Positions 2,830 to 33,052 of a stretch of DNA of 64,000 bases are shown in pieces. The notes under the pieces were generated by a model. It was not told the origin of the DNA and did no database searches. It saw only the letters and a list, made by a program, of their open reading frames with translations. The DNA is taken from sequence record OR539219.1. One strand, given 5' to 3'. Made by a program: the position numbers and the translations under genes. Within the stretch, counting starts at the first letter, position 1; the number at the start of each line of letters is the position of its first letter. This DNA is from Escherichia phage vB-Eco-KMB39.

Positions 2830-3137
2830 CGGCAACCTTGTCGGGGTTCCACCTGCTAAGGCAAGTGTTTGTACGAAACGCCGGGATTCGAACCCGGTTA
2901 TTAAGTAGTTGACGCTACTCAATATTTTTAAAAGGCCATATCTCGACCATATCCGAACGTTCCGTCAAAAACGCTACTCGGCTTATGGCAAAGATATTTC
3001 CTCGAATCGATAATTCGGTGCGCCGTTTCTGCTGTGATATAAGGGGACATTAACAAAACATAAAGATTTATTAATGCCAGTCCTTAAACAGGGAACATCA
3101 GTCCGACGACTTGCCGGTAGCGACCCGGCTTCTTGTC
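2830..3137 (-). ncRNA. candidate small stable RNA(s), tRNA-like 3' module
   Basis: No ORF; minus strand contains CCGGG-TTCGAAT-CCCGG (T-arm-like) with pairing CGGAACG/CGTTTCG but no CCA and no standard cloverleaf; position recalls T4 species 1/2 RNAs (memory only). Confidence 0.25.
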
Positions 3138-3215
3138 TGGTCGAGGCAGTAGGGATCGAACCTACGACCCAGGACTTAGAAGGTCCTTGCTCTTCCTTCT
3201 GAGCTATGCCTCGTA
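3138..3215 (-). tRNA. tRNA-Arg (anticodon TCT)
   Basis: Hand-folded cloverleaf: acceptor CGAGGCA/TGCCTCG, anticodon loop CTTCTAA, T-arm GTAGG-TTCGATC-CCTAC, encoded CCA. Confidence 0.75.
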
Positions 3216-3217
3216 TT

Positions 3218-3292
3218 TGGCGGACGTGATAGGATTCGAACCTATAACCAATCGCTTAACAGGCGATCGCTCTGCCATTGAGCTACACATCC
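3218..3292 (-). tRNA. tRNA-Asn (anticodon GTT)
   Basis: Acceptor GGATGTG/CACGTCC, anticodon stem ATCGC/GCGAT, loop CTGTTAA, T-arm TAGG-TTCGAAT-CCTA, encoded CCA. Confidence 0.7.
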
Positions 3293-3296
3293 AAAT

Positions 3297-3383
3297 TGGT
3301 GGGGAGTGGTGGAGTCGAACCACCCGAGTCGCAATGACAATGAATTTACAGTCCACACCGCTACCCCTACGGGATAACTCCCC
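3297..3383 (-). tRNA. tRNA-Tyr (anticodon GTA), type II with long variable arm
   Basis: 87 nt; acceptor GGGGAGT/ACTCCCC, anticodon loop CTGTAAA, variable arm GTC-ATTGC-GAC, T-arm GGTGG-TTCGACT-CCACC, CCA; anticodon stem needs two G-U pairs. Confidence 0.55.
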
Positions 3384-3392
3384 AAATTAATT

Positions 3393-3467
3393 TGGTGGCC
3401 CTGGGTGGAATTGAACCACCATCTGGCGATTATGAGTCGCTTGCTTGAACCTTCCAGCTACAGGGCC
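3393..3467 (-). tRNA. tRNA with CAT anticodon (Ile-lysidine or Met)
   Basis: Acceptor GGCCCTG/CAGGGCC, anticodon loop CTCATAA, T-arm GGTGG-TTCAATT-CCACC, encoded CCA. Confidence 0.7.
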
Positions 3468-3468
3468 T

Positions 3469-3545
3469 TGGTGCTGATTGACGGAATCGAACCGCCGACA
3501 TCCTCATTACAAGTGAGGTGCTCTACCTACTGAGCTAAATCAGCA
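3469..3545 (-). tRNA. tRNA-Thr (anticodon TGT)
   Basis: Acceptor TGCTGAT/ATCAGCA, anticodon stem CCTCA/TGAGG, loop CTTGTAA, T-arm GGCGG-TTCGATT-CCGTC, CCA. Confidence 0.8.
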
Positions 3546-3549
3546 AAAC

Positions 3550-3639
3550 TGGCGGAGGCGATAGGATTTGAACCTATGAGTCGCCGGAGCGACTGCCGGT
3601 TTTCAAGACCGGTGCATTCAACCACTCTGCCACGCCTCC
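3550..3639 (-). tRNA. tRNA-Ser (anticodon TGA), type II
   Basis: 90 nt; acceptor GGAGGCG/CGCCTCC, anticodon stem CCGGT/ACCGG, loop CTTGAAA, long variable arm, T-arm TAGG-TTCAAAT-CCTA, CCA. Confidence 0.8.
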
Positions 3640-3642
3640 AAA

Positions 3643-3658
3643 TATTTATATATTTATA
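3643..3658 (-). promoter_or_regulatory. two tandem TATAAATA late-promoter motifs just upstream of tRNA-Ser
   Basis: Plus-strand tatttata at 3643-3650 and 3651-3658 (TATAAATA on minus), between segB stop and tRNA-Ser 5' end; very close to the tRNA 5' end, so function uncertain. Confidence 0.3.
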
Positions 3659-4262
3659 TATTGTTAATTTGATTTAGAATTCTTTTTGCTTGAGTATGAC
3701 TTACGCCAATATGCTTAGCATATTTAGATAATTCGCCGCGTTTAGAAAAATCATATAATTTAGAAATTTCTATTCTTCTTTTTCTTTCATCCGCAGAAAC
3801 TTTTGCTTCGTTTGCTTTTGCTATTTTACGTTTAGCTTCTTGAGAATGAGTTTTACCAGCAAAGCCATTCTTCATTAATCCATTTGAAGACCATCCTTTT
3901 AATTTTCCGTTAGAATGTGCCTTTTTAACACCCAATGAAATTAATTCGCGTTGCTGATCTGTCATAGGATAATTATTTATATGATCCCATCCACCTTCAC
4001 CTCCAAGTTTTAAATTATACACATCTGGTCTATTTAAAAACTCTTCTGTGACAATATTTTTCTCGGCTTCAAGCATAGATTCTTTATCATCAAAATACTC
4101 TAATATTTCTTTAGAAAAATTTTCTATACCATATTTATCTTGGGCTCTTTTTAATAATTTACCAGAACCCATATATCCATCATCTAAATTTTCGGTAGAA
4201 TGCACACCAATATAAATTTTATTATTAATTTTATTTGTTATTTTATAAAGATAAAAATGCAT
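3654..4262 (-). CDS. segB: GIY-YIG homing endonuclease embedded in the tRNA cluster
   Basis: GIY-YIG motifs FYLYKITNKINNKIYIG and YMGSG; start moved from 4304 to ATG 4262 to avoid overlapping tRNA-Gly; segB-like position by memory of T4. Confidence 0.75.
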   Translation of the reverse strand: MHFYLYKITNKINNKIYIGVHSTENLDDGYMGSGKLLKRAQDKYGIENFSKEILEYFDDKESMLEAEKNIVTEEFLNRPDVYNLKLGGEGGWDHINNYPMTDQQRELISLGVKKAHSNGKLKGWSSNGLMKNGFAGKTHSQEAKRKIAKANEAKVSADERKRRIEISKLYDFSKRGELSKYAKHIGVSHTQAKRILNQINNI

Positions 4263-4308
4263 ATCAGTCCCTAATAAAGAACTGAGCGTCTCACGACGAG
4301 TCATAAAT

Positions 4309-4382
<74 letters not shown>

Positions 4383-4387
4383 AAATT

Positions 4388-4474
4388 TGGTGCGAGAAGT
4401 GGGACTCGAACCCACAAGGAAATAATTCCGCAGCATTTTAAGTGCTGTGCCTTTACCAATTTGACCATTCTCGC
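4388..4474 (-). tRNA. tRNA-Leu (anticodon TAA), type II
   Basis: 87 nt; anticodon loop CTTAAAA, long variable arm, T-arm GTGGG-TTCGAGT-CCCAC, CCA; matches my recollection of T4 tRNA-Leu. Confidence 0.85.
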
Positions 4475-4475
4475 G

Positions 4476-4548
4476 CTGGGAATAAAGGACTCGAACCTTT
4501 GCATCCTGGAATCAAAATCCAGTGCCTTACCAACTTGGCTAATTCCCA
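4476..4548 (-). tRNA. tRNA-Gln (anticodon TTG), CCA not encoded, 1-nt spacer to tRNA-Leu
   Basis: Acceptor TGGGAAT/ATTCCCA plus discriminator G, anticodon stem CTGGA/TCCAG, loop TTTTGAT, T-arm AAAGG-TTCGAGT-CCTTT. Confidence 0.8.
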
Positions 4549-5442: not shown

Positions 5443-5832
5443 TCAGCCTTCATCAACAATAGTATGAGTGTGAGCATTTACAATTTGCCACCAATCAAAG
5501 CGATTAGAACCATACATCGGTTTGTTTTCATTTTCTTTGATAATATCACGGAGTTCATCTTCGGTAGCGGCTTTCGCGATTAAATCAGCATATCCACCAC
5601 GAGGATAATAATTATCACCTGCAAAAAGTAAAAAGTTTGGTTTAATGTTATTGAACTCTTCAAGAGTAATAACTTTTCCTGACGGTTGAACAATCTCTAC
5701 ATATTTATATCCCAATTTTTGAGCAGCATCTACTGCTTCAAGCAAAGTATCATGAGCCCATCCAATTTGACAACCTGGCTTTTCAGATGGATTAGCCTGA
5801 TAATCCGCATACACTTTATACATTCTATTCAC
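5443..5832 (-). CDS. hypothetical protein
   Basis: 129-aa ORF; its start overlaps the upstream small ORF by 8 nt. Confidence 0.55.
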   Translation of the reverse strand: MNRMYKVYADYQANPSEKPGCQIGWAHDTLLEAVDAAQKLGYKYVEIVQPSGKVITLEEFNNIKPNFLLFAGDNYYPRGGYADLIAKAATEDELRDIIKENENKPMYGSNRFDWWQIVNAHTHTIVDEG

Positions 5833-6010
5833 CTTTAGAAATTTTATCCATAACGATAGCGATTAAACCAATTAAAAATGCTACTACAAGTGAAAAAACG
5901 TTTTCTGCTGTAGTCAATAATCCGCATATAAATCCAACAAACATTGAAAAACTAAAAGCAGAAGCAGAAATTGCAATAGCAACATTTCGAATTAATTCAC
6001 AACGTTTCAT
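5825..6010 (-). CDS. small hydrophobic (likely membrane) protein
   Basis: 61 aa with two hydrophobic stretches; GAGGAG RBS and early-type promoter directly upstream. Confidence 0.5.
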   Translation of the reverse strand: MKRCELIRNVAIAISASAFSFSMFVGFICGLLTTAENVFSLVVAFLIGLIAIVMDKISKGE

Positions 6011-6038
6011 TTTATTCTCCTCAGTAGTTGATAGGGTA

Positions 6039-6068
6039 ATAGTATCACAACTAAAACCCTATGTAAAC
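6039..6068 (-). promoter_or_regulatory. T4-early-type promoter candidate (GTTTAC-N18-TACTAT)
   Basis: Minus strand GTTTAC (plus 6063-6068), TACTAT (plus 6039-6044), A/T-rich upstream; overlaps the 3' end of the internal-protein gene. Confidence 0.45.
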
Positions 6069-6080
6069 AACTTTGTGAAA

Positions 6081-6338
6081 TTATTTTAAATCTTCTAATC
6101 GTTTCTTCATCTTAGAACCATTTTTAGCAATTTCTCCTGCATCGGAGCATAACGCTAAAAGTGCTTTAACTTTAGTTTGGTCTCCTTTAAAAGACGAAGG
6201 ATCGACCGCAGCAGCAAGTTCTTTAATACGAGAGAAAAGACGCTCAGCTTCAGCTAAAGCCATTCCAAGCTTTACTTCCATACCGTGGGAAGATTCGGTG
6301 ATAGTAGTTTTTGTAGCAAACTCTTTGAAAGTTTTCAT
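6081..6338 (-). CDS. internal protein (IPI-locus type) with capsid-targeting N-terminus
   Basis: 85 aa; N-terminus MKTFKEFATKTTITE with I-T-E protease site; sits next to 57B as ipI does in T4 (memory). Confidence 0.6.
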   Translation of the reverse strand: MKTFKEFATKTTITESSHGMEVKLGMALAEAERLFSRIKELAAAVDPSSFKGDQTKVKALLALCSDAGEIAKNGSKMKKRLEDLK

Positions 6339-6368
6339 TTTATTTTCCTAATTAATTTTGATGAGGTA

Positions 6369-6398
6369 ATAGTATCACTACCTCATCAGCATGTAAAC
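6369..6398 (-). promoter_or_regulatory. T4-early-type promoter candidate (GTTTAC-N18-TACTAT), near-identical repeat of 6039..6068
   Basis: 33-nt block atgtaaacaactttgtgaaattattttaaatc is identical at 6061-6093 and 6391-6423. Confidence 0.45.
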
Positions 6399-6410
6399 AA
6401 CTTTGTGAAA

Positions 6411-7095
<685 letters not shown>

Positions 7096-7096
<1 letters not shown>

Positions 7097-7821
7097 TATA
7101 GTACCTTTAGTGTATTTTTAATTTTAGAAAAAAGTTCTTCAAGAGAACCATCGTTTGTAATTACTAAATCGCCATCACGAATTGGCAATCCAGCTTCTGT
7201 AATATGTGTATCATTGGATTTTTGACCAGGACGAACTACATGAATTACTGTAGCACCCATCGCCCTAGCCGCATCCATTTCATGATCTTGACGGGTATCA
7301 GGAACGATATAATAATCATAACCTGAGTTAAATTTATCAAGATAATCTAAAGCAAATAATTTTACCCAATACATGCGGTCGAAGTTATTAACAATCAAAT
7401 CCGTACCTAGGGCTTGCATCAGACGACGGACTGACCATTGATCTTCAATATTATTTATAACGTCAATAATCTTGTTAAATGCTACGGAATTAACTGATTC
7501 TTGTCCTTCGTCATCAAAAACAAACACACCTTTAATTGGGCTTTTACCGTTAAGATAGCAAAATGCTTGTTCCATAATCGTGATTACTTCTAATTTAGTC
7601 AGATTTAAATTAGTCTCACGATCATAGTCAATTCCTTCAAACTCTTTACGAGTTAAGCAAGGATAGTCAGTGTTTGCTGCAAATACTCCCCATGCATAAG
7701 CCAATGCATCCTTAATAGGACCAGCAAGTTGGTATTTAACTGCAGAATAATTGCTCATGATAAAATCAGCAGTAGTATCTTTTCCACTACGCTTTACACC
7801 GCTTAAAAAGATTAGTTTCAT
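7096..7821 (-). CDS. 1: deoxynucleoside monophosphate kinase gp1
   Basis: Start set to ATG 7821 (MKLIFLSGVKRSGKDT, P-loop GxxxxGK(S/T)); track ORF begins 13 codons upstream; GAGGAG RBS. Confidence 0.9.
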
Positions 7822-8507: not shown

Positions 8508-9167
8508 TTAATTTATTAGACTTCTTAAACGAGCAGAAGTCATAAATGGAAATTTTTCTAAAGTTGGCTTTCGCCAATATCTTGGATGACAAGTTGATTT
8601 AAAATCAAGAACAATTTTCTTTGCTTCATCAATAGTGTTAACTCCAAAGTTATCTAACATTATTTTCTTTTCTTTTTCCCACCGTTTATTAGCTAAAGCA
8701 GATTGAAGCTTTTTGTTTTTAAATGTGTCATTTTTTCTAGAATGAGTTGTGCCTTGTGTCGGACTCCATCCTCTTCCTAAAATAAATCCCTCAGGAATTA
8801 TATCTCCATCATGTAATTTTATACATCTTTTACCATTATTATAATATTTTCGTCCAGTTTGTGTATTTGAAATATTATTTACATGTTTTCTTTTTAACCA
8901 ACCATAAACTTTATTATTTCTCCTAACATATTTAGTTGAAACCGTCATTTTTATGGCTGCATAAGATAATTTTAAAGAATTTGGGTGTATTTTTACTAAT
9001 AGCTGATGTGCAACATAATGCTCTTCTGGAGTTAAATCAACCAAGTTAGAAGCATCATTACTACCGCCTAAACATTTCGGAATAATATGATGTCTTTCTT
9101 TATATCCAGTAAGGGCTCTATTGCGAGCCCTATCAATTAGTGAATTATAAATTTTTTCATAATTCAT
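8508..9167 (-). CDS. HNH homing endonuclease with NUMOD-like C-terminal repeats, inserted between genes 3 and 2
   Basis: Motif [29 protein letters not shown]; ATG 9167 overlaps the gp2 stop (ATGA); paralogue of 46927..47619. Confidence 0.75.
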
Positions 9168-9991
9168 CGTACATTGCTCCAAACTTTGTTTGCAGAGAAA
9201 CGTTTTCCTTTGGAGTAGAAGCTTTGGAGTGGCATCAACACAACGTTCGCCCAGTCTTTCGGGGCGATTTCAACAAGGCTACCCATAATATTACCGGGTA
9301 TATATGCCTTAATCATTTGGTCTGCACCCCTAAATCCTTTCACTTGACTCCAATCAATTTTTAATTTCGTTTTATTAGTAATAGTAGGTGTATTTGAATA
9401 TTGCTTTAAAAGCTCTTCTAGAAATTGCTGACGAGCTTTAGGTGGAATATAGTGCAAGTTTAATCCGTACATTAAATTGTGCTTACCTAAACCAAGGTAA
9501 ATTATCAAAGGAAATTTATCCCAGTAAGGAAGAGTTTCCTTGTGTTTAGCATCATAAGCAAAAGCATATATTCGTCCCGGTTGCGGGCGAACAACTTTAT
9601 GTCCTTTTACTTGCTTAATAGTTTCAGCAAACCACTTTCTGGTTTTATTATTAATTGCTGCACCTTCATTACGAATTTTATCACGCAATGTTTGTCTGAA
9701 TGAATTTATCATAAGCAGTTGTCTTTCTTGCTTATTGAGTTTATTCATTGGTTTTGATTCAAGCTTTTGAATCTTTTCAGCCGTTTTAATTCCTGAAGCA
9801 TATTTTGACATTGCTGAAGTAAACGTAGAGTATTTGATTCCTCTTTCTTCAGCAAATTGCTTTCCTGTCATTCCTTTTGCTTTGGCCTTTTTATATTCAA
9901 GACCTATCTGAATCCATTTCTTTTCGTTTAATGATTGCTTAACCTTTGGAACTTGGGGAGTGCTTTCATTAATTATTTGAAAAATAGCCAT
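9164..9991 (-). CDS. 2: DNA end protector protein gp2
   Basis: 275-aa ORF between genes 3 and 4; assigned by synteny and size. Confidence 0.7.
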
Positions 9992-10490: not shown

Positions 10491-11081
10491 ATGCTCTTTA
10501 CATTTTTTGATCCGATTGAATATGCGGCCAAAACGGTGAATAAAAACGCGCCGACTATTCCTATGACAGATATTTTTAGAAACTATAAAGACTATTTTAA
10601 ACGCGCTCTTGCGGGATACCGCTTACGTACTTATTATATCAAAGGTTCACCACGCCCGGAAGAATTAGCAAATACTATATATGGAAATCCACAGCTGTAT
10701 TGGGTTTTATTGATGTGTAATGATAATTATGATCCATATTATGGATGGATTACTTCACAAGAAGCAGCTTATCAAGCATCTATACAAAAATACAAAAATG
10801 TAGGTGGAGACCAAATAGTATATCACGTGAATGAGAACGGTGAAAAATTTTATAATTTAATATCATACGATGATAATCCATATGTTTGGTATGATAAAGG
10901 CGATAAAGCTAGAAAATATCCTCAATATGAAGGAGCGCTTGCTGCGGTCGATACGTATGAAGCGGCTGTTCTTGAAAATGAAAAACTTCGTCAAATAAAA
11001 ATAATAGCAAAATCAGACATCAATTCATTTATGAACGACCTTATACGTATAATGGAGAAATCTTATGGAAATGATAAGTAA
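10491..11081 (+). CDS. 53: baseplate wedge protein gp53
   Basis: 196-aa protein recognised as gp53. Confidence 0.85.
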   Translation: MLFTFFDPIEYAAKTVNKNAPTIPMTDIFRNYKDYFKRALAGYRLRTYYIKGSPRPEELANTIYGNPQLYWVLLMCNDNYDPYYGWITSQEAAYQASIQKYKNVGGDQIVYHVNENGEKFYNLISYDDNPYVWYDKGDKARKYPQYEGALAAVDTYEAAVLENEKLRQIKIIAKSDINSFMNDLIRIMEKSYGNDK

Positions 11082-22432: not shown

Positions 22433-23091
22433 TGAGTTTACTTAATAATAAAGCGGGAGTTATTTCCCGCTTAGCAGATTTTCTTGGTTTTAGAACTAAG
22501 AAAAATGATATTTCGGTTATGAATAATCAGCCAGTAGGTGCTGTAACAATTTCACAAATAGCAAAAGGTTTTTATGACCCAAATGTAGAATCTGCTATCA
22601 ATGATGTTAGAAATATGGCAGAGCAACAGGTTGGAGCTGTATTAGTTAATATAAGTGGCGTATCTCCTACTGGCGTGCAGCAAACAGACTATTGGTCATT
22701 TGAAGGAACTGTTACTGATACTTCAGCCAAACCAGGTGACCCAGTTATTGTTAATATGTTTGGCATTCCTGTTAAAGCTACTAATGGAATGACTTCAATC
22801 GAATTTACCAGTGCCGTTAGAACAGCTCTACAGGAAATGGTTGCAAAATTTATTGCAATTGATTCATTTGAAGACCATCCTACCATAGGAAATAAAATAC
22901 AAGTTAAGTATTTAGATAACCAAGAACATATCTTAGAACAATACTCTGATAAAGGAATTACTTTCAAACAGGAAATAATTTCTCCTTCTAAACCTGGGTA
23001 TGGAACTTGGCAATTATTAGGTGCGCAAACTGTTACGCTAGATAGTCACACCCAACCTACAGTATTTTATTATTTTGAGAGAATAGCATGA
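22432..23091 (+). CDS. 11: baseplate wedge protein gp11
   Basis: Start moved to ATG 22432 (TAATG overlap with gp10 stop), giving 219 aa. Confidence 0.85.
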
Positions 23092-24638
23092 GTAACAATA
23101 CATATCAGCACGTATCAAATGAATCGAAATACGTTAAATTCGATCCTGCAGGATCGAATTTTCCTGACACTGTCACGACAGTGCAGTCAGCATTATCAAA
23201 AATAAGTAATATCGGCGTAAATGGTATTCCTGATGCAACTATGGAAGTTAAAGGAATAGCAATGATTGCATCGGAGCAAGAGGTTTTAGATGGAACTAAT
23301 AATTCTAAAATCGTTACACCAGCTACATTAGCAACAAGATTATTGTATCCAAATGCTACTGAAACTAAATATGGGTTAACGCGCTATTCAACAAATGAAG
23401 AAACTTTAGAAGGCTCAGATAATAATTCATCAATAACGCCGCAAAAACTGAAATACCATACTGACGATGTATTCCAAAATAGGTATTCATCTGAATCATC
23501 AAATGGAGTTATTAAAATATCATCTACTCCTGCGGCTTTGGCTGGTATAGATGATACTACGGCGATGACTCCGTTGAAAACCCAAAAACTCGCAATAAAA
23601 TTAATTTCGCAAATAGCTCCTTCAGAAGACACAGCATCAGAATCTGTTAGAGGTGTAGTTCAGTTATCAACTGTCGCTCAAACTCGTCAAGGAACTCTCC
23701 GCGAAGGATATGCAATTTCTCCGTATACCTTTATGAATTCTGTTGCAACACAAGAATATAAGGGTGTTATACGTTTAGGAACACAATCAGAAATTAACAG
23801 TAATTTGGGAGATGTTGCAGTAACAGGTGAAACACTAAATGGTCGAGGAGCTACCGGTTCTATGCGTGGGGTAGTAAAATTAACGACGCAAGCCGGTATT
23901 GCCCCTGAAGGTGATAGCTCTGGGGCATTAGCCTGGAACGCAGATGTAATTAATACTCGTGGTGGACAAACTATTAATGGTTCTTTAAATTTAGACCATC
24001 TCACGGCAAATGGAATTTGGTCGCGCGGCGGAATGTGGAAAAATGGCGATCAGCCTGTTGCCACTGAAAGATATGCGTCCGAACGGGTTCCGGTTGGAAC
24101 TATTATGATGTTTGCGGGTGATTCAGCACCTCCAGGTTGGATTATGTGTCATGGTGGAACTGTGTCAGGAGATCAATATCCTGATTATAGAAACACAGTT
24201 GGAACAAGATTTGGTGGGGATTGGAATAATCCAGGGATTCCTGATATGCGAGGTCTTTTCGTCAGAGGAGCGGGCACAGGTGGTCATATTTTAAATCAAC
24301 GAGGACAAGATGGTTATGGGAAGGATAGACTTGGTGTAGGATGTGATGGAATGCATGTTGGTGGTGTTCAAGCGCAACAAATGTCATACCATAAACACGC
24401 TGGTGGTTGGGGAGAATATAACAGAAGTGAAGGTCCATTTGGCGCGTCTGTTTATCAAGGATATCTTGGAACTAGAAAATATGCCGACTGGGATAACGCT
24501 TCATACTTCACCAATGATGGATTTGAATTAGGTGGACCGAGAGATGCCCTTGGTACACTTAATCGTGAAGGATTAATTGGTTATGAAACTAGACCATGGA
24601 ATATATCATTAAACTATATTATTAAAATTCATTACTAA
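23088..24638 (+). CDS. 12: short tail fibre gp12
   Basis: 516 aa; repetitive N-terminal shaft and C-terminal receptor-binding region. Confidence 0.85.
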
Positions 24639-24647
24639 GGATTACAA

Positions 24648-26105
24648 ATGATTGAATTAAAAGAGTTACCTTTTGTTGATAGCGTTCCTGGCGAAGGTCA
24701 GGAGCGTATTTCATGGATTAAAAATGGTGAAGAAATATTAGGAGCTAGTACTAAGTATGGAAACGATGGATCAATGAATAGACCAACTGTTTCCGTGTTT
24801 AAAAATGTTGAGGTTCTTGACGAAAATATAGGAATTCTTAAAACAGCATTAGAAACATCCCAGGAAGATATTAAAACCATTCAGGGTATCTTAGATGTAT
24901 CTGGTGATATAGAAGCTTTATCGCAAATAAGTATCAATAAAAAGGATATCACTGATCTTAAAACGCTTACGAGTGAACATACCGAAATATTAAATGGAAC
25001 TAATAATACTGTCGATAGCATTCTTGCTGACATTGGTCCATTTAATTCGCAAGCAAATTCAGTTTATAGAACGATTAGAAATGATTTGTTATGGATTAAA
25101 AGGGAATTAGGACAATATGCTGGGCAAGACATTAACGGTCTTCCTGTTGTAGGAAATAGCAGCACGGGTATGAAGCACCGTATCATTAATAATACAGATG
25201 CTATAACTTCCCAAGGAATACGTCTAAGTGATTTGGAAGAAAAATTTATTGAATCTGATGTAGGTTCACTGACAATTGAAGTCGGAAATCTTAGACAAGA
25301 ACTTGGACAAAGACCATCTTCATTTAGTGAAAGCATATATTCACGTGTGCATAATTTAGATCAATCTCAAATTAATCTTAGTTCCGAAATTAAATCTATC
25401 AAAACTTCTATTGGATATCCAGGAAATACTTCAATAATCACAGATGTTAACACTAATACCCAAGAAATTTCAGCTTTAAATGATGAACTAAATAAAAGCG
25501 GAGGTATTAAACAGCGATTGACTGTCATTGAAACATCAATTGGCTCAGATGATATTCCTTCTAGTATTAAAGGTCGAATTAAAGATAATACAACATCTAT
25601 TGAGTTTTTAAATGGAATTGTTGGTGAAAACACTTCATCTGGACTACGAGCAAATGTTTCATGGCTAAACCAAATCGTTGGAACTGATTCTAGTGGAGGT
25701 CAGCCTTCTCCTCCTGGGTCTCTTTTAAATAGGGTTTCAACTATTGAAACTTCCGTTAATAGATTGAACAATGATGTTCAAAACTTACAAGTTGAAATTG
25801 GTAATAACAATTCCGGAATTAAAGGACAAGTTGTAGCATTAAATAAATTAGTAAATGGAACAAATCCAAATGGTTCAACTGTCGAAGAACGCGGATTGAC
25901 TAATTCAATAAAAGCTAATGAGACTAACATTGCTTCAATTAATCAAGAAATGCGTAGTATTAAAAGTAATGTATCTTCGTTACAGGGGGATGTTCAGACT
26001 TTGCAGGAAGCAGGTTATATTCCTGAAGCTCCAAAAGATGGTCAAGCTTACGTTCGTAAAGACGGCGAATGGGTATTACTTTCTACCTTTTTATCACCAG
26101 CATAA
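24648..26105 (+). CDS. wac: fibritin (whisker) Wac
   Basis: 485 aa coiled coil ending in the foldon [27 protein letters not shown]. Confidence 0.9.
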
Positions 26106-31050: not shown

Positions 31051-33030
31051 ATGACTTTATTATCTCCGGGCATTGAGCTCAAAGAAACTACGGTTCAAAG
31101 CACCGTTGTTAATAACTCTACTGGTACAGCAGCTTTGGCCGGTAAATTCCAGTGGGGTCCTGCTTTTCAGATTAAACAGGTTACAAATGAAGTAGATTTA
31201 GTTAATACTTTTGGTCAACCTACAGCTGAAACTGCTGATTATTTTATGTCTGCAATGAATTTCTTACAATATGGAAATGATTTGCGAGTTGTGCGTGCTG
31301 TCGATAGAGATACCGCTAAAAACTCATCTCCGATTGCTGGTAATATTGAATACACTATTTCAGCCCCAGGTAGTAACTACGCGGTTGGAGATAAAATCAC
31401 GGTTAAGTATGTTTCAGAAAATGTTGAAACAGAGGGTAAAATTACTGAAGTAGACGCAGATGGAAAAATTAAGAAAATTAATATTCCTACTGCAAAAATT
31501 ATTGCTAAAGCGAAAGAAGTCGGTGAATATCCAGCATTAGGTTCTAACTGGACTGCAGAAATTTCTTCATCTTCTTCCGGTTTAGCTGCAGTAATAACTC
31601 TTGGAAAAATTATTACTGATTCCGGTATTTTATTAGCTGAAATCGAGAGCGCTGAAACTGCTATGACAGCAGTTGATTTTCAGGCAAATCTTGAAAAATA
31701 TGGAATTCCAGGAGTAGTAGCTCTCTATCCAGGCGAATTAGGCGATAAAATTGAAATTGAAATCGTATCTAAAGCTGACTACGCAAAAGGTGCTTCTGCA
31801 TTACTCCCAATTTATCCAGGTGGTGGAACACGCGCATCTACTGCCAAGGCAGTGTTTGGATATGGACCACAAACTGATTCACAATACGCTATTATAGTTC
31901 GTCGTAATGATGCTATTGTTCAAAGCGTTGTTCTTTCAACAAAGCGTGGTGAAAAAGATATTTACGATAGTAACATCTATATTGATGACTTTTTCGCAAA
32001 AGGTGGTTCAGAATATATTTTTGCAACTGCACAAAACTGGCCAGAAGGCTTCTCTGGAATTTTAACTCTGTCTGGTGGATTATCATCAAATGCTGAAGTA
32101 ACAGCAGGAGATTTGATGGAAGCCTGGGACTTCTTTGCTGACCGTGAATCTGTTGACGTTCAACTGTTTATTGCGGGTTCTTGTGCTGGTGAATCTTTAG
32201 AAACAGCATCTACTGTCCAAAAACACGTCGTTTCAATTGGTGATGCTCGCCAGGATTGCTTAGTATTGTGCTCACCACCGCGTGAAACTGTAGTTGGAAT
32301 TCCTGTAACCCGTGCTGTTGATAACTTAGTCAATTGGAGAACTGCAGCAGGTTCATACACTGATAATAACTTTAATATCAGTTCAACCTACGCAGCAATT
32401 GATGGCAACTACAAATATCAGTATGACAAATATAATGATGTGAATCGTTGGGTCCCATTAGCAGCTGATATTGCTGGATTGTGTGCAAGAACTGATAACG
32501 TATCTCAGACTTGGATGTCTCCAGCTGGTTATAATCGTGGCCAGATTCTTAACGTTATTAAACTTGCTATTGAAACTCGCCAGGCTCAGCGCGACCGTTT
32601 ATACCAAGAAGCTATCAACCCGGTAACTGGTACAGGTGGTGATGGTTACGTATTGTATGGTGATAAAACAGCTACTTCTGTTCCTTCTCCATTTGATCGT
32701 ATTAACGTTCGTCGTCTGTTTAATATGTTGAAAACGAATATCGGACGTAGTTCAAAATATCGTTTGTTCGAATTAAACAATGCGTTTACTCGTTCATCAT
32801 TCCGCACAGAAACTGCCCAGTACTTACAGGGAATTAAAGCTCTCGGTGGAATTTATGAATATCGTGTAGTTTGCGATACAACAAATAACACTCCGTCAGT
32901 AATTGATAGAAATGAGTTTGTTGCAACATTCTACATCCAACCGGCTCGTAGTATAAATTATATCCAACTTAATTTCGTCGCAACTGCTACTGGTGCAGAT
33001 TTCGATGAGTTAACTGGTCTTGCAGGTTAA
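31051..33030 (+). CDS. 18: tail sheath protein gp18
   Basis: 659 aa; recognised tail sheath sequence. Confidence 0.9.
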   Translation: MTLLSPGIELKETTVQSTVVNNSTGTAALAGKFQWGPAFQIKQVTNEVDLVNTFGQPTAETADYFMSAMNFLQYGNDLRVVRAVDRDTAKNSSPIAGNIEYTISAPGSNYAVGDKITVKYVSENVETEGKITEVDADGKIKKINIPTAKIIAKAKEVGEYPALGSNWTAEISSSSSGLAAVITLGKIITDSGILLAEIESAETAMTAVDFQANLEKYGIPGVVALYPGELGDKIEIEIVSKADYAKGASALLPIYPGGGTRASTAKAVFGYGPQTDSQYAIIVRRNDAIVQSVVLSTKRGEKDIYDSNIYIDDFFAKGGSEYIFATAQNWPEGFSGILTLSGGLSSNAEVTAGDLMEAWDFFADRESVDVQLFIAGSCAGESLETASTVQKHVVSIGDARQDCLVLCSPPRETVVGIPVTRAVDNLVNWRTAAGSYTDNNFNISSTYAAIDGNYKYQYDKYNDVNRWVPLAADIAGLCARTDNVSQTWMSPAGYNRGQILNVIKLAIETRQAQRDRLYQEAINPVTGTGGDGYVLYGDKTATSVPSPFDRINVRRLFNMLKTNIGRSSKYRLFELNNAFTRSSFRTETAQYLQGIKALGGIYEYRVVCDTTNNTPSVIDRNEFVATFYIQPARSINYIQLNFVATATGADFDELTGLAG

Positions 33031-33038
33031 TTGATTGT

Positions 33039-33052
33039 GGGGCTTCGGCCCC
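33039..33052 (+). terminator. GC-rich UUCG-type hairpin after gene 18
   Basis: GGGGC-TTCG-GCCCC; weak T-run. Confidence 0.35.

Follow-up and report, generated by a model that had tools for sequence, protein, structure and literature searches.

Ip5, a T-even internal-protein candidate with a predicted capsid-targeting leader, and its suggested benefit to phage on Escherichia coli CFT073

The ip5 gene and its boundary elements

The window analyzed here is a 64,000-nt stretch of the genome of Escherichia phage vB-Eco-KMB39 (OR539219.1), a Tequatrovirus whose nearest relatives are RB32 and RB33 (96.4% identity over the first 24 kb). The open reading frame list places ip5 on the minus strand at 6081..6338 (85 codons plus stop; ATG at 6338-6336, stop at 6083-6081), exactly where the original prediction had put an 85-aa protein. 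The product has the N-terminus MKTFKEFATKTTITESSHGME / MKTFKEFATKTTITESSHGMEVKLG, and its first 15 residues are MKTFKEFATKTTITE. It matches the PHROG 3499 profile (“internal head protein”) with an E-value of 1.2e-49 over residues 1-85 of 85, and profile searches against Pfam and NCBIfam gave no match. The conserved upstream neighbor is 57B (6411..6866, minus strand), which encodes the anti-CBASS protein Acb1 (Pfam Acb1, E 2.6e-60) and is annotated as 57B in both RB51 and T4; the ip5 start lies 72 nt downstream of it. Upstream of 57B come 57A (6866-7096, minus strand; Pfam GP57) and then gene 1. On the downstream side the conserved neighbor is trna.4 (5825..6010, minus strand), which encodes a 61-aa predicted membrane protein (PHROG 1692, E 6e-35; annotated as tRNA.4 in RB51 and T4) and is followed by trna.3, trna.2 and the tRNA cluster. 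This gene order is that of T4 around ipI. The predicted adjacency to 57B was thus borne out, with ip5 between 57B and trna.4 at the ipI position.

Among database proteins, Ip5 of this phage is 100% identical to that of RB15 (a GenBank record of 1994), T6 and RB32, 98.8% identical to that of T2 and 96.5% identical to that of RB51, where the protein at the same position is annotated as “Ip5,” similar to Ip5 of T6, T2, RB15 and RB70 and to RB69ORF127c. Approximately 268 phage records carry ip5 at the 57B-trna.4 locus, and a diverged version is present at the second internal-protein (IP) locus of approximately 228 further phage genomes; among the carriers overall are T2, T6 and many candidates for therapy. 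Given the full identity to the RB15, T6 and RB32 proteins and the roughly 268 records at the same locus, Ip5 is no new variant. The gene is already known, as a named and long-catalogued member of the T-even complement, and the parts list gains nothing new from it. The original prediction had described a variant of open specificity: the openness stands, in that a full-text literature search for Ip5 retrieved nothing on the phage protein and no paper giving a target, but the protein is the named ip5 product and not an uncharacterized variant.

A word-indexed homology search and an exhaustive HMMER search both found Ip5 relatives in T-even phages only, the latter returning three clusters, all of the Ip5 family, from 1.84 billion representative proteins. 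On the evidence of these sequence searches, the family occurs nowhere outside T-even phages and, within them, only at two IP loci. The 57B-trna.4 locus varies among T-even phages by presence, absence and swapping of cassettes, in agreement with what had been predicted. In the window ip5 is the sole cassette, RB15 has four (ip5, ip9, ip7, and ip8), Bas37 and IME537 have two each, and T4 has no ip5 and carries ipI in that position. Diverged Ip5 homologues (48-54% identity) occur at the e-denV locus in Mosigvirus and Gaprivervirus, which indicates that the cassette has moved between the two IP loci. There (retrieved locus positions 3001-3282) the homologue begins inside the 3' end of the lysozyme gene e, with 4 nt shared in NR1 and 14 nt in VR25, and it therefore lacks an intergenic promoter element such as ip5 has at the 57B locus.

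Elsewhere in the window, the tRNA cluster (3138-4548, nine tRNA genes) is split by a GIY-YIG/NUMOD3 (SegB-like) endonuclease gene (3654-4304, minus strand), with Arg, Asn, Tyr, Met(CAT), Thr and Ser on one side and Gly, Leu and Gln on the other; compared with the T4 set, Asn and Tyr are present and Pro is absent. Genes 3 and 2, only about 100 bp apart in T4, are separated here by a 224-aa ORF (8508-9182, minus strand). It shows an HNH-like motif by eye, has no Pfam match at E <= 0.001, and is probably a homing-endonuclease insertion.

The original prediction had also given ip5 an early promoter of its own, and a consensus scan located a candidate. The predicted T4-type early promoter (6369..6398, minus strand, read from 6398 to 6369) has the form GTTTACAT-N13-TGATACTAT with a TG-extended -10, and is near-identical to the T4 57B-ipI intergenic sequence; in the phage Lutter record a promoter is annotated at the equivalent place. 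Over the whole window the motif was matched 8 times against 1.45 expected, and two of the exact matches flank ip5. As a consensus match, the element is best described as a putative promoter. Its -10 is enclosed by a stem-loop (6359..6388, minus strand) that forms a perfect inverted repeat with 10-bp arms at 6359-6368 and 6379-6388. The 92-nt intergenic stretch containing it (6339-6430) folds at -22.3 kcal/mol, with a z-score against shuffles, a single-sequence value only, of -3.98. Since no U-tract follows it, the stem-loop is not a canonical terminator. A Shine-Dalgarno sequence read from the sequence, AGGA (6346..6349, minus strand), lies 7 nt before the ip5 ATG. No late-promoter consensus (TATAAATA) is found beside ip5, the nearest one upstream on the minus strand being at 7452-7459, 1.1 kb away.

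These elements belong to a direct repeat of approximately 94 nt, made up of 69 nt (84%) and 25 nt (84%) at spacings of 330 and 328 nt, that brackets ip5. The upstream copy (6333..6426, minus strand) runs from the last codons of 57B, D-L-K-stop, through promoter, stem-loop and Shine-Dalgarno sequence to ATGAAA. The downstream copy (6005..6096, minus strand) comprises the last codons of ip5, again D-L-K-stop, a predicted early promoter (6068-6039), a stem-loop (6031-6062), a Shine-Dalgarno sequence and the trna.4 start; the fold of its intergenic stretch has a z-score against shuffles, likewise for the single sequence, of -2.52. The stems of both copies are AT-rich and lack a U-tract, their register differs between the two, and when nine intergenic elements from IP loci were aligned, their stems fell in no common register, so that counting paired positions for covariation would have no meaning. 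Both boundary elements flank ipI in T4 near base for base, and such elements also stand between neighboring IP genes in RB15 (four genes) and IME537 (two genes). The shared D-L-K-TAA ending of 57B (6411-6425) and ip5 (6081-6095) is part of the direct repeat, and T4 ipI does not have it. The C-terminus of Ip5 seems to be shaped by, or to hitch-hike on, a recombination element.

Leader, predicted cleavage and mature protein

The first 15 codons of ip5 (6294..6338, minus strand) encode a predicted propeptide, or capsid-targeting sequence (CTS), with a predicted gp21 cut after Glu15. As originally read, the leader combines a capsid-targeting motif with an I-T-E protease site: it reads MKTFKEF, thus following the MKT(F/Y)xEF type with its aromatic residues 4 and 7 (F4 and F7), and its (L/I)-x-E site is I13-T14-E15. 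When all six frames of the 64-kb window were scanned for M-[KQ]-T-[FY]-x-x-[FL], ip5 was the sole matching ORF, and the leader motif is beyond chance. The propeptides of T4 internal proteins have 10-19 residues and act as capsid-targeting sequences, targeting depends on propeptide residues 4 and 7, and gp21 cuts after the Glu of (L/I)-x-E (PMC9026906). In Ip5 homologues at 38-54% identity, F4, F7 and the (L/I)-x-E site (as ITE, LNE, LAE or LSE) are kept in all, and leader length is variable. That the site is always kept despite this variation argues for selection on processing. By analogy with the T4 proteins, we infer cleavage of Ip5 after Glu15 (I-T-E followed by S).

The predicted mature protein, Ip5* (6084..6293, minus strand), would have 70 aa and a mass of 7.5 kDa, and it is basic, with 13 Lys and Arg residues and a pI of 9.2. 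An AlphaFold2 model of Ip5, built on a 7-sequence alignment, has a mean pLDDT of 83.6, exceeding 90 over most of residues 21-80. It consists of three helices (residues 15-44, 54-63, and 67-84) and no strands, and the leader is of low pLDDT and disordered. A structure search of PDB and BFVD with this model found no relatives beyond the protein's own family. The literature search found no virion proteome or N-terminal sequence that includes Ip5, and its packaging and cleavage therefore rest on analogy. In all of its sequence-level characters Ip5 is a member of the CTS-bearing T-even internal-protein cassette class, and, by the same analogy, it is probably packed in the head and injected with the DNA.

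Fitness on CFT073 and the possible target of Ip5

A protein 100% identical to Ip5 of the window, bas37_0261 of phage Bas37 (KarlGJung, MZ501089), is covered by published Tn-seq data (Extended Data Table 7, 10.1101/2025.11.20.689424), in which log2 fold changes are given relative to K-12 BW25113. On the K-12 reference library the gene is non-essential, with 18 of 18 TA sites hit (10.1101/2025.11.20.689424). On CFT073, insertions in bas37_0261 were depleted approximately 4-fold (log2FC -2.09, adjusted p 0.00000, i.e., <1e-5) in what is one pooled screen, the gene being unmentioned in the preprint text and the effect unvalidated by its authors. No significant change was reported for the other clinical strains, CFE299 (-0.01), CFE303 (-0.01), CFE331 (-0.13) and CFE336 (+0.26) (10.1101/2025.11.20.689424). 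Insertions in the downstream genes 0257-0260 were not depleted on CFT073 (10.1101/2025.11.20.689424), so polarity does not explain the depletion of bas37_0261. The upstream gene 57B/Acb1 (bas37_0262) was depleted on CFT073 as well (log2FC -1.56, adjusted p 0.003), with values of -0.86 on CFE303 and -0.83 on CFE331, neither of them significant (10.1101/2025.11.20.689424). This depletion could be either a phenotype of 57B itself or an effect on ip5 expression, and because 57B is also depleted, a local effect on CFT073 is conceivable. Taken together, the data suggest that Ip5 benefits the phage when its host is the uropathogenic E. coli strain CFT073.

In the immigration control region of CFT073 (22680-24773 and 31397-33049 of the retrieved chromosome stretch), a DUF262 pseudogene precedes a distinct GmrSD-domain gene; a Type I restriction-modification system and a second DUF262 gene are also present. 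The split DUF262/GmrSD pair resembles the two-gene GmrSD systems of PMC12373910. Each of T4 Ip1, Ip2 and Ip3 inhibits a single Type IV restriction enzyme of the GmrSD type, and the authors of that study propose the same role, against other GmrSD variants, for all IP-locus proteins (PMC12373910). When ip4-10 were supplied in trans, no reproducible inhibition was seen across their GmrSD panel (Suppl. Fig. 9, PMC12373910), where we assume from the name that their ip5 is this protein. According to published data, T2 and T6, both of which bear Ip5, are restricted by GmrSD-ECOR21, GmrSD-ECOR17 and the “UT” enzyme of UTI89. T4 IPI inhibits a further enzyme, GmrSD-CT596, which restricts T2, with its 98.8% identical Ip5, unless IPI* is supplied; thus, the specificity of Ip5 probably differs from that of IPI*. 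RB15 is not restricted by GmrSD-CT596, but it carries three internal proteins besides Ip5. The published data argue against the four characterized GmrSD enzymes (ECOR21, ECOR17, UT, and CT596) as the target of Ip5.

We therefore consider a model in which transcription of ip5 would start at its own early promoter of the T4 type and translation would give an 85-aa precursor, the 15-residue leader would target this precursor to the prohead scaffolding core, and the prohead protease gp21 would cut it after Glu15. The 70-aa basic, three-helix Ip5* would then stay in the head with the DNA and enter the next host with it. Present from the onset of infection, Ip5* could neutralize a strain-specific host defense against incoming modified DNA, the likeliest target class being a modification-dependent Type IV, GmrSD-like nuclease that is present in CFT073 and unlike those blocked by Ip1, Ip2 and Ip3. 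The identity of the gene, its leader and cleavage motif, the promoter-like site, the cassette structure and the missing homology to IPI* are seen in the sequence analysis, and the conditional need on CFT073 comes from the published screen; that the protein is packaged, cleaved and injected, and what it targets, are parts that we infer. As a whole, this picture of an early-transcribed, targeted, cleaved, packaged and injected counter-defense protein, with a probable Type IV-like target, appears to us likely. More tentatively, Ip5 might be an injected, all-helical inhibitor of an uncharacterized CFT073 defense for which C_RS30460/C_RS30465 (the DUF262 pseudogene with its GmrSD neighbor) and C_RS25630 are candidates, a possibility that we would not favor on present data. 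If true, this would add a new pair of inhibitor and nuclease, the inhibitor having a fold that departs from IPI*, and it would account for ip5 being found at the 57B-trna.4 locus of T2/T6-type phages more often than any other gene.

The same injected protein could counter a CFT073 defense that is neither GmrSD nor otherwise Type IV, i.e., another immune system or a strain-specific host factor. The negative GmrSD panel for ip4-10, the restriction of Ip5-bearing T2/T6 by four different GmrSD enzymes, and the predicted all-helical fold, unlike that of IPI*, all point in this direction, as does the table of selected defense systems in the preprint, which lists only SanaTA for CFT073 (10.1101/2025.11.20.689424). 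However, every IP-locus protein with a known target (Ip1, Ip2, Ip3, and the Ip6-type bas37_0260) blocks a Type IV enzyme, and the known IP inhibitors share no sequence homology with each other anyway (PMC12373910). Moreover, the diversity of the GmrSD family extends far beyond the 15 groups that were tested (PMC12373910), and GmrSD-family genes are present in CFT073. We thus regard a target outside Type IV as rather unlikely. The basic character of Ip5* (pI 9.2, 13 Lys and Arg in 70 aa) would also suit a mainly structural, DNA-associated head filler that aids DNA condensing or ejection without a specific host target, as T4 internal proteins use lysines to contact DNA phosphates and have copy numbers in the hundreds (PMC3012670). 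Such a role seems improbable for a gene that is dispensable on K-12 (18 of 18 TA sites hit), affects fitness in just one of five clinical strains, is missing entirely from T4, and occupies a locus whose presence, absence and swapping are typical of accessory counter-defense genes. It is very improbable that Ip5 is an unpackaged, newly made early cytoplasmic protein with a leader left over from cassette recombination, an idea that the early-only adjacent promoter (with the late consensus not nearby) and the position of the leader start, ATGAAA, inside the repeat mediating cassette exchange would favor, since the key leader residues and the cleavage motif are kept at 38-54% identity and in another locus, which argues for functional selection, and since the product of T4 ipI, a gene with this very promoter layout, is packaged.

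Among internal proteins, targets are known only for Ip1, Ip2, Ip3 and one Ip6-type protein, and of the many that are not from T4, Ip5 is among the most widespread. The apparent strain-specific need for Ip5 on CFT073, which the public Tn-seq data show but their authors do not discuss, offers a concrete phage-host pair in which standard genetics could find the Ip5 target, and the effect bears on host-range prediction for T-even phages against uropathogenic E. coli.

Comparison with T4 IPI, bas37_0260 and repeat-bounded cassettes

T4 IPI resembles Ip5 in its locus, in the flanking promoter and stem-loop, and in its leader, MKTFKEFTSTTTPVSTITE (MKTFKEF...TITE). The two are also similar in mature size and charge (IPI*, 76 aa, pI 9.0; Ip5*, 70 aa, pI 9.2). 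Their mature sequences, on the other hand, are not alignable. The original prediction had called for alignment with T4 IPI, and in BLASTP the likeness was confined to the leader, with 14 of 26 identities, covering Ip5 residues 1-22 and nothing beyond IPI residue 26; the mature parts are unrelated, and the protein is not T4 IPI. Likewise, HMMER searches of 1.84 billion representatives gave no link between Ip5 and IPI. IPI* is built of two beta-sheets flanked by helices (PMC3012670), whereas Ip5 is predicted to be all-helical. By mature homology and by the modeled fold alike, Ip5 is therefore not a member of the IPI family. The ipI product is packaged in approximately 360 copies and injected (PMC9026906), and Ip5 may work like IPI as an injected inhibitor.

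Another small CTS-bearing protein of the same locus is bas37_0260, an Ip6-type protein of Bas37 whose gene lies directly downstream of the identical ip5 and has its own early promoter. The mature sequences of the two proteins are unrelated, and bas37_0260 is absent from the window. Its phenotype concerns McrBC of K-12, while ip5 insertions are neutral on K-12. The HIDEN-SEQ preprint reported bas37_0260 as a “previously unknown” McrBC inhibitor (10.1101/2025.11.20.689424). We considered Ip5 as the McrBC inhibitor of Bas37 and rejected it, the inhibitor being bas37_0260 and Ip5 being bas37_0261. The bas37_0260 family comprises 231 phage records, and bas37_0260 is 76% identical to the product of a gene annotated ip6 in VR26. 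Genes of this type lie directly downstream of ip5 in Bas37 (10554-10787 of the retrieved stretch) and in IME537 (870-1103 of the retrieved stretch).

The boundary elements of ip5 invite comparison with the PeSL (promoter-early stem-loop) cassettes of RB49 and phi1, in which small accessory genes are likewise flanked by a repeated early promoter and stem-loop. In both cases the repeats provide homology for insertion, deletion and swapping. A PeSL, however, combines a strong promoter with a G/C-rich stem-loop that terminates upstream transcription, whereas the ip5 elements combine a predicted promoter with a stable AT-rich hairpin. Arbiol et al. (2010) described the IP-locus elements as analogues, not homologues, of PeSL, with T4 early promoters and weaker AT-rich stems of variable size; the ip5 elements, with the stems of their two copies in different registers, match this description. 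The repeat arrangement of the IP locus was itself already in the literature (Arbiol et al., 2010, referring to Repoila et al.). The Ip5 of RB15, T6, RB32, T2 and RB51 is the same protein, in the same position and with the same flanking elements as in the window, and it differs in nothing of substance.
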